This document shows positions 9,074-64,000 of a stretch of 64,000 nt of DNA, one piece after another (the first letter of the stretch is position 1; the number at the start of each line of letters is the position of its first letter). The stretch is from NCBI GenBank assembly GCA_951406725.2, contig OX597819.1:129642001-129706000 (forward strand), in the 5' to 3' direction. Both the position numbers and the translations under genes were made by a program. The notes under the pieces were generated by a model, which ran no database searches, was not told the origin of the DNA, and was given only the letters and a program-made list of their open reading frames with translations. This DNA is from Octopus vulgaris. Taxonomy: Eukaryota.

Positions 9074-9481
9074 ATTATTATTTGAGGGAATATCATTCCT
9101 AACTTAGAGGGAAAAATTCAATTTAGAAATACTAAATCAAATTTCACACAATATAATATATACATAAAAATTAGAACCCCCCCCCACCTTTTATCAATTA
9201 AAAATGAACAATTAAATTACACCATCTAGAAAATTACATATAATAGAAATATTAAAAATAAAATAACAATAAAATACCGATGATTAAGTAAATTGCAAAA
9301 AAAATAATAAAAACGTATATAATTGGCAGCAATTATACGTTTTTATTATTTTTTTTTGCAATTTACTTAATCATTGGTATTTTATTGTTATTTTATTTTT
9401 AATATTTCTATTATATGTAATTTTCTAGATGGTGTAATTTAATTGTTCATTTTTAATTGATAAAAGGTGTTTTTTTCTCTA
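9074..9481. mobile_element. (TA)n-embedded fold-back element, probable Penelope-like terminal remnant
   Basis: Inverted arms 9185-9469 (about 140 bp each, centre near 9326), one-sided extension 9074-9184, TA tracts on both sides; a fragment recurs at 481-524. Confidence 0.55.
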
Positions 9482-17024: not shown

Positions 17025-17093
<69 letters not shown>

Positions 17094-17098
<5 letters not shown>

Positions 17099-17497
17099 TT
17101 ATTAGAGACAAAACCACTATTTTGCAAAACAAACAAGGAAAGACTTAATCAATACATAAAATTTTAATAAATAGTCAAAAAAACCGCCACTACAATCGTT
17201 TCTTGTCTTGATCGACAATCTTCAGGTGGACTTCAATAAGTCAGTTTCAAATTATAATTTGAAACTGACTTATTGAAGTCCACCTGAAGATTGTCGATCA
17301 AGACAAGAAACGATTGTAGTGGCGGTTTTTTGACTATTTATTAAAATTTTATGTATTGATTAAGTCTTTCCTTGTTTGTTTTGCAAAATAGTGGTTTTGT
17401 CTCTAATAATATTTTATAATATTTTACTATAAAATTGGATTTAATCCTAAATCTGATTTTTTTCCCTGTAAATTTGGATTTATTCCCTAATATTTAT

Positions 17498-22324: not shown

Positions 22325-25300
22325 AAGGCGGCGAGCTGGCAGAAACGTTAGCACGCCGGGCGAAATGCTTAGCGGTATTTCGTTTGCCGCTACGTTCTGA
22401 GTTCAAATTCCGCCGAGGTCGACTTTGCCTTTCATCCTTTCGGGGTCGATTAAATAAGTACCAGTTACGCACTGGAGTCGATGTAATCGACTTAATCAGT
22501 TTATCTGTCCTTGTTTGTCTCCTCTGTGTTTAGCCCCTTGTGGGTAGTAAAGAAATAGGTATTTCGTCTGCCGTTACGTTCTGAGTTCAAATTCCGCCGA
22601 GGTCGACTTTGCCTTTCATCCTTTCGGGGTCGATTAAATAAGTACCAGTTACGCACTGGAGTCGATGTAATCGACTTAATCCGTTTGTCTGTCCTTGTTT
22701 GTCTCCTCTGTGTTTAGCCCCTTGTGGGTAGTAAAGAAATAGGTATTTCGTCTGCCGTTACGTTCTGAGTTCAAATTCCGCCGAGGTCAACTTTGCCTTT
22801 CATCCTTTCGGGGTCGATTAAATAAGTACCAGTTACGCACTGGAGTCGATGTAATCGACTTAATCAGTTTATCTGTCCTTGTTTGTCTCCTCTGTGTTTA
22901 GCCCCTTGTGGGTAGTAAAGAAATAGGTATTTCGTCTGCCGTTACGTTCTGAGTTCAAATTCCGCCGAGGTCGACTTTGCCTTACATCCTTTCGGGGTCG
23001 ATTAAATAAGTACCAGTTACGCACTGGAGTCGATGTAATCGACTTAATCCGTTTGTCTGTCCTTGTTTGTCTCCTCTGTGTTTAGCCCCTTGTGGGTAGT
23101 AAAGAAATAGGTATTTCGTCCGCCGTTACGTTCTGAGTTCAAATTCCGCCGAGGTCGACTTTGCCTTTCATCCTTTCGGGGTCGATTAAATAAGTACCAG
23201 TTACGTACTGGAGTCGATGTAATCGACTTAATCAGTTTATCTGTCCTTGTTTGTCTCCTCTGTGTTTAGCCCCTTGTGGGTAGTAAAGAAATAGGTATTT
23301 CGTCTGCCGTTACGTTCTGAGTTCAAATTCCGCCGAGGTCAACTTTGCCTTTCATCCTTTCGGGGTCGATTAAATAAGTACCAGTTACGCACTGGAGTCG
23401 ATGTAATCGACTTAATCAGTTTATCTGTCCTTGTTTGTCTCCTCTGTGTTTAGCCCCTTGTGGGTAGTAAAGAAATAGGTATTTCGTCTGCCGTTACGTT
23501 CTGAGTTCAAATTCCGCCGAGGTCGACTTTGCCTTTCATCCTTTCGGGGTCGATTAAATAAGTACCAGTTACGCACTGGAGTCGATGTAATCGACTTAAT
23601 CCGTTTGTCTGTCCTTGTTTGTCTCCTCTGTGTTTAGCCCCTTGTGGGTAGTAAAGAAATAGGTATTTCGTCCGCCGTTACGTTCTGAGTTCAAATTCCG
23701 CCGAGGTCGACTTTGCCTTTCATCCTTTCGGGGTCGATTAAATAAGTACCAGTTACGCACTGGAGTCGATGTAATCGACTTAATCCGTTTGTCTGTCCTT
23801 GTTTGTCTCCTCTGTGTTTAGCCCCTTGTGGGTAGTAAAGAAATAGGTATTTCGTCTGCCGTTACGTTCTGAGTTCAAATTCCGCCGAGGTCAACTTTGC
23901 CTTTCATCCTTTCGGGGTTGATTAAATAAGTACCAGTTACGCACTGGAGTCGATGTAATCGACTTAATCAGTTTATCTGTCCTTGTTTGTCTCCTCTGTG
24001 TTTAGCCCCTTGTGGGTAGTAAAGAAATAGGTATTTCGTCTGCCGTTACGTTCTGAGTTCAAATTCCGCCGAGGTCGACTTTGCCTTACATCCTTTCGGG
24101 GTCGATTAAATAAGTACCAGTTACGCACTGGAGTCGATGTAATCGACTTAATCCGTTTGTCTGTCCTTGTTTGTCTCCTCTGTGTTTAGCCCCTTGTGGG
24201 TAGTAAAGAAATAGGTATTTCGTCCGCCGTTACGTTCTGAGTTCAAATTCCGCCGAGGTCGACTTTGCCTTTCATCCTTTCGGGGTCGATTAAATAAGTA
24301 CCAGTTACGTACTGGAGTCGATGTAATCGACTTAATCAGTTTATCTGTCCTTGTTTGTCTCCTCTGTGTTTAGCCCCTTGTGGGTAGTAAAGAAATAGGT
24401 ATTTCGTCTGCCGTTACGTTCTGAGTTCAAATTCCGCCGAGGTCAACTTTGCCTTTCATCCTTTCGGGGTCGATTAAATAAGTACCAGTTACGCACTGGA
24501 GTCGATGTAATCGACTTAATCAGTTTATCTGTCCTTGTTTGTCTCCTCTGTGTTTAGCCCCTTGTGGGTAGTAAAGAAATAGGTATTTCGTCTGCCGTTA
24601 CGTTCTGAGTTCAAATTCCGCCGAGGTCGACTTTGCCTTTCATCCTTTCGGGGTCGATTAAATAAGTACCAGTTACGCACTGGAGTCGATGTAATCGACT
24701 TAATCCGTTTGTCTGTCCTTGTTTGTCTCCTCTGTGTTTAGCCCCTTGTGGGTAGTAAAGAAATAGGTATTTCGTCCGCCGTTACGTTCTGAGTTCAAAT
24801 TCCGCCGAGGTCGACTTTGCCTTTCATCCTTTCGGGGTCGATTAATTAAGTACCAGTTAGGCACTGGGGTCGATGTAATCGACTTAATCCGTTTGTCTGT
24901 CCTTGTTTGTCCCATCTGTGTTTAGCCCCTTGTGGGTAGTAAAGAAATAGGTATTTCGTCTGCCGTTACGTTCTGAGTTCAAATTCCGCCGAGGTCGACT
25001 TTGCCTTTCATCCTTTCGGGGTCGATTAATTAAGTACCAGTTACGCACTGGGGTCGATGTAATCGACTTAATCCGTTTGTCTGTCCTTGTTTGTCCCCTC
25101 TGTGTTTAGCCCCTTGTGGGTAGTAAAGAAATAGGTATTTCGTCTGCCGTTACGTTCTGAGTTCAAATTCCGCCGAGGTCGACTTTGCCTTTCATCCTTT
25201 CGGGGTCGATTAAATAAGTACCAGTTACGCACTGGGGTCGATGTAATCGACTTAATCAGTTTATCTGTCCTTGTTTGTCTCCTCTGTGTTTAGCCCCTTG

Positions 25301-25501
25301 TGGGTAGTAAAGAAATAGGTATTTCGTCTGCCGTTACGTTCTGAGTTCAAATTCCGCCGAGGTCGACTTTGCCTTTCATCCTTTCGGGGTCGATTAATTA
25401 AGTACCAGTTACGCACTGGGGTCGATGTAATCGACTTAATCCGTTTGTCTGTCCTTGTTTGTCCCGTCTGTGTTTAGCCCCTTGTGGGTAGTAAAGAAAT
25501 A
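22325..25501 (+). repeat. SINE family B-derived tandem array, 17 x 184 bp
   Basis: Units start at 22374 + n*184 (last at 25318); only the first carries the 5' head; flanked by atacataatcccc(c)aa on both sides. Confidence 0.95.
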
Positions 25502-48052: not shown

Positions 48053-48104
<52 letters not shown>

Positions 48105-48108
<4 letters not shown>

Positions 48109-48421
48109 TAAAAACGGTAAGATAACAAAAGAAAGAAAGAGACCTCAATATTATGTAAATAGTGGAAATTTATCTATAAAATAATATGTACATTTACTCG
48201 ATAGTCAAGATAAAACTCTGAGTTTCAGATGCCGAAGTGGAAATCCACAACACCATCTCTTCGGTTATCTGGCTATCTGAAAAACGCTATGAAAAAGATA
48301 ACGGTATTTTTTCATAGCGTTTTTCAGATAGCCAGATAACTGAAGAGATGGTGTTGTGGATTTCCACTTCGGCATCTGAAACTCAGAGTTTTATCTTGAC
48401 TATCGAGTAATGTAACATATT

Positions 48422-48424
<3 letters not shown>
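48105..48424. mobile_element. (TA)n-embedded fold-back element
   Basis: Arms about 48181-48296 / 48307-48424, extension 48105-48180, TA tracts on both sides. Confidence 0.7.
48334..48396 (+). ncRNA. Candidate type-I hammerhead ribozyme
   Basis: agataa-CTGAAGA-gatg...gtgga(tt)tccac...catc-t-GAAA-ctc(a)gag-TT-ttatct; 6-bp helix I. The mirror arm has the mutated core CCGAAGA. Confidence 0.62.
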
Positions 48425-48512
<88 letters not shown>

Positions 48513-62507: not shown

Positions 62508-62588
<81 letters not shown>

Positions 62589-62593
62589 TATAT

Positions 62594-62818
62594 AAACTAC
62601 GAAATGGGACAAGAACGCAAAACATCCGGACAACCAGGTGATACAGAAAGGGACAACAAAACATCCAGATAGACAATACAAAGAAAACAAGGACGGACTG
62701 AGGATAAAAAGTTTCGAATGACCCGTCCTTGTTTTTTTGTATCGTCTATCTGGATATTTTGTTGTCCCTTTCTGTATCACCTGGTTGTCCGGATGTTTTG
62801 CGTTCTTGTCCCATTTCG

Positions 62819-62858
<40 letters not shown>

Positions 62859-62888
62859 AGCGGCGTACGTACACTTTGTTCTCTTATA
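62594..62888. mobile_element. (TA)n-embedded fold-back element, same family as 16016-16211
   Basis: Arms 62594-62696 / 62723-62824 and tip agcggcgtacgtacactttgttctct. Confidence 0.7.
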
Positions 62889-63255: not shown

Positions 63256-63288
63256 TTTTATATATATGTATATATATATTTCCCATAA

Positions 63289-63462
63289 TTCAGGCAAATT
63301 CCTCTCTGTGAACATATAGAAAAATGTGCAGGTAACATCAAACCACATTTTACAGTCTTCCCCTTCTACCAGTGCAAAGACACAATCTCTCCACTAGAAC
63401 GTTTAAATAAAGAAACATTTTTCATTGAAAAATACAGAACACGTCTTAATATGCACGCATAA
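63289..63462 (+). pseudogene. C-terminus of a Penelope-like element ORF (GIY-YIG endonuclease end)
   Basis: FRQIPLCEHIEKCAGNIKPHFTVFPFYQCKDTISPLERLNKETFFIEKYRTRLNMHA-stop fits the GIY-YIG C-terminal H...RxxxExxxI....LN pattern; 5'-truncated at a (TA)n tract; absent from the ORF track. Confidence 0.7.
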
Positions 63463-63748
63463 CCAACTTTTATCTTTTTGCATATTTCAATTCACGATTA
63501 CATCACTGTACATAAATACCCTCACTAAACAATTTTTTCGAAACCTTTTTTGTCTGTACATATGTATTTCCCTCCCATTACCGAAAGCTGAACAGTTATC
63601 TCCCATACCTACAACAATAACAATAAGGATAACCAATTACCTCCCCTTATTTCTCTACTTGTGAAGTCATTCGCTCGTAAATATCATCACACACAAAATG
63701 GACAAAATTTCTTCTTAAGAAAATATATATTCAAATAAATAAAATATA

Positions 63749-63783
63749 ATATCATGAATAGCAATAGCGAAACCGGTCGATAT
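63749..63783 (+). ncRNA. Candidate minimal hammerhead ribozyme with A3-U8 core variant
   Basis: atatc-ATGAATA-gc(aata)gc-GAAA-ccgg-TC-gatat; 5-bp helix I, palindromic helix III, GUC site; lies 3' of the Penelope-like ORF. Confidence 0.6.
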
Positions 63784-63837
63784 ATAAAAAATTATATTAA
63801 AACCATGTAAAGTGTGTGTATTTTCCTTTTTTAATTT

Positions 63838-63903
<66 letters not shown>

Positions 63904-64000
63904 TTTGTTGTGCAAGATTTTTTATGCGGTCACAGGAGTGTGACGAAAGAACTTTGGCCGAAAAAAAAAAAAAAAAAATAAATATCACTGAAGCAAAATA

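Follow-up and report, generated by a model that had tools for sequence, protein, structure and literature searches.

A natural A3–U8 core pair is the family consensus of a minimal hammerhead motif in a Penelope-like retroelement of Octopus vulgaris

Introduction

Minimal hammerhead ribozymes (min-HHRs) of Penelope-like elements (PLEs) have been published as acting as dimers with low activity, and a natural U3–A8 core pair has been published for PLE hammerheads, including that of Schistosoma Cercyon (Cervera and De la Pena 2014, PMC4209133). In the anole Poseidon element PAc, the hammerhead cleaves only with the element protein; in the available text on this element, hammerhead mutants are without effect on insertion in vitro and no RNA-seq ends are reported at the hammerhead cut (Frangieh et al. 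2024, PMC11167929). Both that paper and the survey of EN+ PLEs by Craig et al. (2021, PMC8557442) treat it as an open question whether hammerheads of PLEs have a function or are passengers.

The pair between core residues 3 and 8 forms in the active fold and is absent from minimal ground-state crystals (PMC3884650), and the general acid is proposed to be the 2'-OH of G8 (PMC6155905). A complete scan of double mutants in a type III hammerhead gave rescue by the G–C swap alone, with low activity in the other mutants of that region; because of this, A3–U8 ranks as poor in that scan (PMC9901934).

Here we describe a locus in a 64-kb stretch of Octopus vulgaris DNA (the window) in which a hammerhead-like motif carries A3–U8, together with its relatives in the same genome.

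Results

The locus in the window

An earlier, sequence-only reading of the window had described a peptide followed by a hammerhead-like motif between TA tracts. The sequence is as described, and the locus consists of the following parts.

63260..63279, no strand: TA-rich tract at the 5' truncation junction; family similarity begins at about 63279–63281.
63279..63462, plus strand: coding remnant of a GIY-YIG C-terminus; holds a 57-aa frame, 51/57 identical to residues 579–635 of the relative L101.
63463..63845, plus strand: family A 3' UTR / pseudo-LTR; 40 scored genomic matches (of 2,630 candidates) at 89–100% identity, self included.
63749..63783, plus strand: minimal type I hammerhead motif with A3–U8; A3 is 63754 and U8 is 63759, with a predicted cut after C17 (63778).
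63807..63813, plus strand: splice-donor-like site about 30 nt 3' of the predicted cut; most copies read GTAAGT, the window copy having one extra A.
63840..63904, no strand: (TA)n target array; the window copy is without the optional tail of about 50 nt.

The 57-residue frame runs from stop to stop at 63289–63459, with the C-terminal letters KETFFIEKYRTRLNMHA and the stop codon at 63460–63462; the distance from this stop to the start of the motif is 287 nt. The frame is this short because it was cut by the 5' truncation and by a stop at 63286–63288, in place of the Gln of relatives, and is no gene. The copy at 63279–63845 is a dead, 5'-truncated Penelope-like retroelement in (TA)n, an ordinary fragment that differs by 6.8% from the family A majority, at a mean pairwise divergence within the family of 9.3%. 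The splice-donor-like site is conserved in family A and would fit a Penelope-like 5' UTR intron spanning the pseudo-LTR boundary.

Stem I of the motif (5' strand 63749–63753, 3' strand 63779–63783) has 5 bp; A9 lies at 63760, stem II and its 4-nt loop at 63761–63768, the GAAA at 63769–63772, the palindromic centre at 63773–63776, and U16.1–C17 at 63777–63778. The literal CUGANGA core is absent, A3 and U8 standing in place of C3 and G8; the other core positions are kept (U4, G5, A6, A9, G12, A13, A14, A15.1–U16.1, H17) and a Watson–Crick pair is possible at 3–8. Stem II is closed by G10.1–C11.1, and the palindromic stem III (a 6-nt palindrome) permits a double hammerhead. The extra nucleotide between A9 and 10.1 that is typical of min-HHRs is absent, as it is from a few published hammerheads that also have a palindromic stem III (PMC4209133). 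To call all helices intact, as had been done, was generous: stem I has its 5 bp, but stem II has only 2 bp, with no tertiary contact evident, and stem III has one pair in the monomer. The motif is the sole match of a strict hammerhead descriptor within the 64 kb, and it had no hammerhead match in Rfam (in one scan, none among the 150 of 257 matches listed).

Identity of the element

A 560-bp stretch of the locus gave the 2,630 candidate matches in the 2.8-Gb genome of the species, of which the 40 scored were 89–100% identical, self included. In all 30 fetched family A loci the alignment reaches the query end or stops no more than 5 nt short of it; copies have a common 3' end and variable 5' truncation, and several have an inverted partner, seen as inverted self-hits. 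Among 30 copies found by pattern, the optional tail of about 50 nt is present in 14 and (TA)5 or more lies within 200 nt in 25. The pseudo-LTR organisation is thus represented in the family by 5' truncation, inverted or tandem partners and the optional tail. In one copy (L045) the tail runs on into a coding start homologous to that of sister family B, described below.

The 635-aa frame of L101 combines a reverse transcriptase (RVT_1, E 1.1e-6, 28.9 bits, just below the 29.6 cut-off) with a C-terminal GIY-YIG domain (Pfam match at residues 542–630, E 1.6e-6, above cut-off), so that both occur in one frame at the family level; the window copy keeps 57 aa only. The window peptide alone had no Pfam match, and its 51/57 identity (89%) to L101 residues 579–635 overlaps the GIY-YIG match of that relative. 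Longer family A copies encode a reverse transcriptase, then a CX4CxxC linker (CX2-5CxxC as defined in PMC8557442), then GIY-YIG with CCHH: the Cys pair falls between the GIY and YIG boxes and the His pair further downstream, the last His lying within the window peptide. The linker before GIY-YIG is present in families A, B, D and E, and the nearest named database proteins are from bivalves (45–47% identity). From these encoded domains the family A element is assigned to the C-terminal-endonuclease (EN+) Penelope-like retroelements, and the L101 match and its Pfam domain bear out the initial view of a Penelope-like 3' end with a GIY-YIG C-terminus. A Neptune/Nematis-type placement is suggested by motifs, the trees below having been built without reference Neptune or Nematis sequences.

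The copy had also been thought to tie the TA-embedded elements of the window to an autonomous partner, a view that gained no support. Family A matches only 63279–63860 in the window; the other hammerhead cores there are C3–G8, have different stems and have no sequence in common with family A; and the best family A protein matches include no full-length intact frame, the longest having 635–673 aa among the 138 scored of 21,955 candidates.

Other elements were noted in passing. The C3–G8 hammerhead-like cores belong to short TA-associated repeats with no sequence relationship to family A, at 17225–17284, 18680, 45353 and 45711 of the window. Short elements that fold back as near-perfect inverted repeats lie between TA tracts at 62559–62859, 17084–17422, 9185–9469 and 48060–48508, an arrangement typical of inverted PLE-type insertions. 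A tandem array at 22374–25501 repeats a 184-bp unit 17 times at 97% matches, the unit resembling a SINE elsewhere in the window. On the minus strand of the genomic locus L004, a frame from 284 encodes another kind of GIY-YIG C-terminus, which has a CxxC close to its end and may belong to a Hydra-type PLE.

A3–U8 in family A

Collection of genomic copies by DNA and protein homology gave 59 loci, 9 of which were dropped as duplicates or as not spanning the motif. In the window copy and the 50 remaining distinct copies, A3 is present in 51/51 and U8 in 50/51 (one gap); in the pattern-found copies the counts are 30/30 and 29/30. A family A pattern with positions 7 and 8 left free matched the genome exactly at 442 sites, and its reversed control at none, with U8 in 99 of the first 100 matches listed. 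Since the motif is the only strict-descriptor match in 64 kb and the family pattern gave 442 matches against none, it is not a chance occurrence. A3–U8 is the consensus of family A, with no private mutation or decay, and the alternative of a CUGANGA family consensus fails.

Variation in family A is 1.6% in the core (9/559) against 6.0% in the UTR, a difference not taken as proof of constraint because copies decay neutrally and base composition differs. Sequencing contigs (from runs labelled as four organisms) cover the motif and have no difference at positions 3 or 8 among the 40 of 161 differences listed, a suggestive result within that scope; a narrower contig comparison over the motif had no letter differences listed and is uninformative for these positions.

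Census and related families

CCGG-type motifs number about 8,200 genome-wide (about 5,800 U–A, 1,240 A–U, 110 G–C and 120 C–G; C3–G8 share below 2%), as extrapolated from pattern counts with a CCGG centre in which pair types were counted by hand on the first 100 matches listed per pattern. The H3/V8 pattern had 6,792 matches (control 35), the first 100 listed comprising 85 U–A, 7 C–G, 4 U·G and 4 other mismatches; D3/U8 had 1,275 (control 9), with 97 A–U among the first 100 listed. For G3/V8 there were 155 matches (control 12), and the first 100 listed included 73 G–C, one of them a spurious long match, the remainder being mostly single-mutant copies of other families. For C3/B8 there were 135 (control 15), with 88 C–G among the first 100 listed, mostly from a tandem repeat of 359–360 bp. 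The description of A3–U8 as a rare natural core variant is therefore apt for the printed record but not for this genome, where about 1,240 copies occur in two separate lineages.

Because the census patterns fix the other core positions and so cannot show their conservation, two more families were retrieved by DNA homology from pattern-found seeds (60 loci, 1 without alignment). Family G1 has A–U in 25/30 copies, plus 1 G–C copy; family G2 has G–C in 23/29 and G·U in 2/29; both lie behind GIY-YIG remnants. The two A3–U8 lineages are unrelated in stem I, stem II and flanks, whereas G1 (A–U) and G2 (G–C) have theirs in common, and G–C copies within G1 keep the G1 stems (L206; about 14 among the first 100 G3/V8 matches listed). 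A protein search also retrieved the young sister family B (61% identity), whose many near-identical copies with frames of 753–782 aa make it look recently active; its pseudo-LTR has the same motif with U3–A8. The position of the motif in the pseudo-LTR is fixed across every related family examined, and the other core positions are fixed across families that are about 55–65% identical in protein.

Several copies have features of their own. Five family B copies (L093, L094, L099, L105, L106) have an upstream frame of 340–380 aa, a C/A-rich stretch and then the 753–782 aa RT-endonuclease frame; this layout could come from homopolymer errors that interrupt a single long frame, from an intron, or from a two-frame organisation of the PLE. 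In L120 and L107 (families B and C) the U3–A8 motif has an extra A in or after GAAA, which gives an 8-nt palindrome and leaves the register of the cut site ambiguous between U17 and G17. The 359–360 bp tandem repeat (L246–L248, L253; G000:C1:20002279-20004541) carries a C3–G8 hammerhead and has flanks in common with dispersed U3–A8 copies, with a faint GIY-YIG remnant upstream in L248; it has the look of a retrozyme-type derivative and seems to represent a fifth compensated change. Within family D, a small subfamily (L249, L250; 3 among the first 100 H3/V8 matches listed) has a U3·G8 wobble and is a possible intermediate between U–A and C–G.

History of the 3–8 pair

An RT-endonuclease protein tree was built from 23 copies and 6 outside proteins, and a DNA tree of the endonuclease region from 59 of 123 rows, after rows without a readable core had been dropped and family A thinned from 49 to 14. 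A U–A family is basal, followed by a polytomy of a U–A family, the G group (G–C and A–U), and a group of A–U families with two U–A families. Position 3 changes four times on the RT-endonuclease tree, each time with a complementary change at position 8, and position 8 changes five times, the extra change being the U·G wobble in L249. Families with a purine at position 3 are rejected as a single clade on the protein tree (AU test, p=0.0005) and on the DNA tree (p=0.037), values to be read with the groups having been tested after the first tree was seen, the rows having been pieced from decayed copies, one long-branch family moving between trees, and the model allowing no pseudo-LTR exchange between families.

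Because wherever position 3 changes among related families position 8 changes to its complement, pairing at 3–8 has likely been kept by selection, to judge from these sequence comparisons. The proposal that the A3–U8 core reflects selection rather than decay is in this way supported beyond a single copy, by compensated changes among U–A, A–U and G–C. A rule whereby residue 17 avoids pairing with residue 3 was considered and rejected: it fits A3/C17, G3/A17 and some U3 families, and fails for the U3/A17 family E and part of family D.

Folding and copy ends

The monomer fold of the window motif was not better than that of shuffled sequences (z 0.25); this and the missing Rfam match are as expected because the motif is so small. 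When two copies of the motif were co-folded, the minimum-energy structure was a double hammerhead at -13.7 kcal/mol, against +3.3 kcal/mol for the active-like fold of the monomer. The dimer energy of the window motif is not exceptional (75/200 shuffles as good); family C did best in this comparison (8/200), and 4 or 5 of 13 representatives, another family A copy included, co-fold otherwise.

Of the 423 copies with the 33-mer that follows the predicted cut, only 2 begin at that site, where the background truncation rate would give about 1; this count comes from inspection of the 29 copies with a non-C before the 33-mer, misses starts after a chance C, and takes the truncation density from the 30 pattern-found copies.

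Discussion

We read the locus as a dead, 5'-truncated PLE copy in (TA)n with a pseudo-LTR hammerhead in which A3–U8 is the family norm, likely under selection and a weakly active substitute for C3–G8; judged from sequence, this reading as a whole has a probability of roughly 0.6. Slow cleavage after C17, dependent on dimers and possibly aided by protein, would, by analogy with described PLE hammerheads, be somewhat favoured over its absence. Two copies of the motif, in tandem or inverted pseudo-LTRs or on two transcripts, would join into a double hammerhead by pairing of the 6-nt palindrome and of stem I; the 3–8 pair would form in the active fold and position the 2'-OH of residue 8 and G12 for the cut after C17. 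The cut would be slow, possibly made only with the help of the element's own protein, and its effect would be to trim element transcripts or limit them; new insertion ends are probably not determined by it. Since the ribose of residue 8 is the part credited with general-acid action, any Watson–Crick pair that keeps the geometry could substitute at 3–8. Other Watson–Crick pairs are reportedly tolerated there, as said of work by Przybilski and Hammann in 2007 and by Nelson and Uhlenbeck in 2008.

The motif might instead be of hammerhead descent and non-cutting, its fold and 3–8 pair serving as a structural or protein-binding handle for RNP assembly or RNA dimerisation. Functions besides cleavage are allowed for PLE hammerheads in PMC4209133, non-G–C swaps had low activity in one scan (PMC9901934), copy ends are not enriched at the cut, and the anole element needs no cleavage for insertion in vitro and has no reported RNA-seq ends at the cut (PMC11167929). 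Because the scan, the cut-site count and the anole insertion data count against cleavage, a structural role keeps a minor share of the probability and is, all in all, unlikely: the 3–8 pair belongs to the catalytic conformation (PMC3884650), G12, A13, A14 and the U-H cut site are retained, and four compensated changes imply selection on exactly this pair.

Less probable again is that the covariation is real and arose in fewer events, through pseudo-LTR modules swapped between families or a single fixation of A3–U8 by master-copy drift. PLE copies are often chimeric, as in L031, where a family D frame is combined with a family A motif, and the deep nodes are partly unresolved, with one long-branch family shifting between trees. 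Against this, the two A3–U8 lineages are unrelated in both stems and in flanks while G1 and G2 are alike in theirs, which argues against a simple swap; G–C copies occur inside G1 on G1 stems, and G·U intermediates occur in G2. The idea of a chance look-alike, or of private decay of a canonical CUGANGA core in one copy, could appeal to the missing Rfam match and the unremarkable monomer fold, and it now has a negligible probability: it is refuted by the excess of exact matches over the control and by A3 and U8 being essentially fixed throughout family A, with the motif at the same pseudo-LTR position in all related families examined.

The preferred reading, in which A3–U8 is a selected and weakly active substitute, can be extended to a picture that we consider possible and rather doubtful. 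In it, the 3–8 pair of one PLE clade would have passed through U–A, A–U and G–C by four or more compensated steps, with C–G in a related repeat that is non-coding, all states cleaving in vivo as dimers, with the element protein chaperoning the active fold and relaxing the base-identity demand of the bare RNA. If this were true, the clade would offer, as a natural allelic series, proof that PLE hammerhead catalysis has long been under selection, and CUGANGA descriptors would fail to detect the majority of hammerheads in genomes of this kind. Standard CUGANGA searches would overlook nearly all of this motif class in the Octopus vulgaris genome. Repeated compensated changes at a pair found only in the catalytic fold are evolutionary evidence for selection on the active conformation, and U–A, A–U, G–C and C–G in near-matched contexts form a ready-made natural series.

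What is new here is the joint census of the 3–8 pair and the tree with repeated compensated flips in one clade; U3–A8 was already known. Small PLE-associated hammerhead variants that cleave as dimers are reportedly, by its title, the subject of work by Lunse, Weinberg and Breaker in 2017. A literature search by literal terms found no natural A3–U8 or G3–C8 hammerhead in its coverage, outside which the 2017 variants lie; these may include such pairs.

Among the closest described counterparts are the min-HHRs of PMC4209133, with which the window motif has in common the pseudo-LTR position, type I topology, a short stem I, the G10.1–C11.1 pair, a palindromic stem III that implies dimers, and tolerance of a compensated 3–8 change. 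It differs in its stem II of 2 bp, against 4–8 bp, and in the absent nucleotide between A9 and 10.1; the available alignment rows of that paper have only C3–G8, U3–A8 and one U3·G8, whereas the window core is A3–U8 and sister lineages add G3–C8. Natural 3–8 covariation was likewise found among the core variants of Perreault et al. (2011, PMC3088659), where the available text reports U3–A8 alone and mentions no purine-3/pyrimidine-8 pair, in contrast to the A3–U8 of the window family. The anole element PAc (PMC11167929) is alike in a tail from internal RT initiation, in AT-rich targets and in a hammerhead that does not mark insertion ends; it differs in its C3–G8 core and in a hammerhead that overlaps the start codon, and Poseidon elements are without the linker zinc finger. 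The Neptune and Nematis EN+ PLEs (PMC8557442) have, like family A, a reverse transcriptase, the CX4CxxC linker and a GIY-YIG domain with CCHH, together with 5' truncation, inverted partners, an optional tail, microsatellite targets and a hammerhead in the pseudo-LTR.
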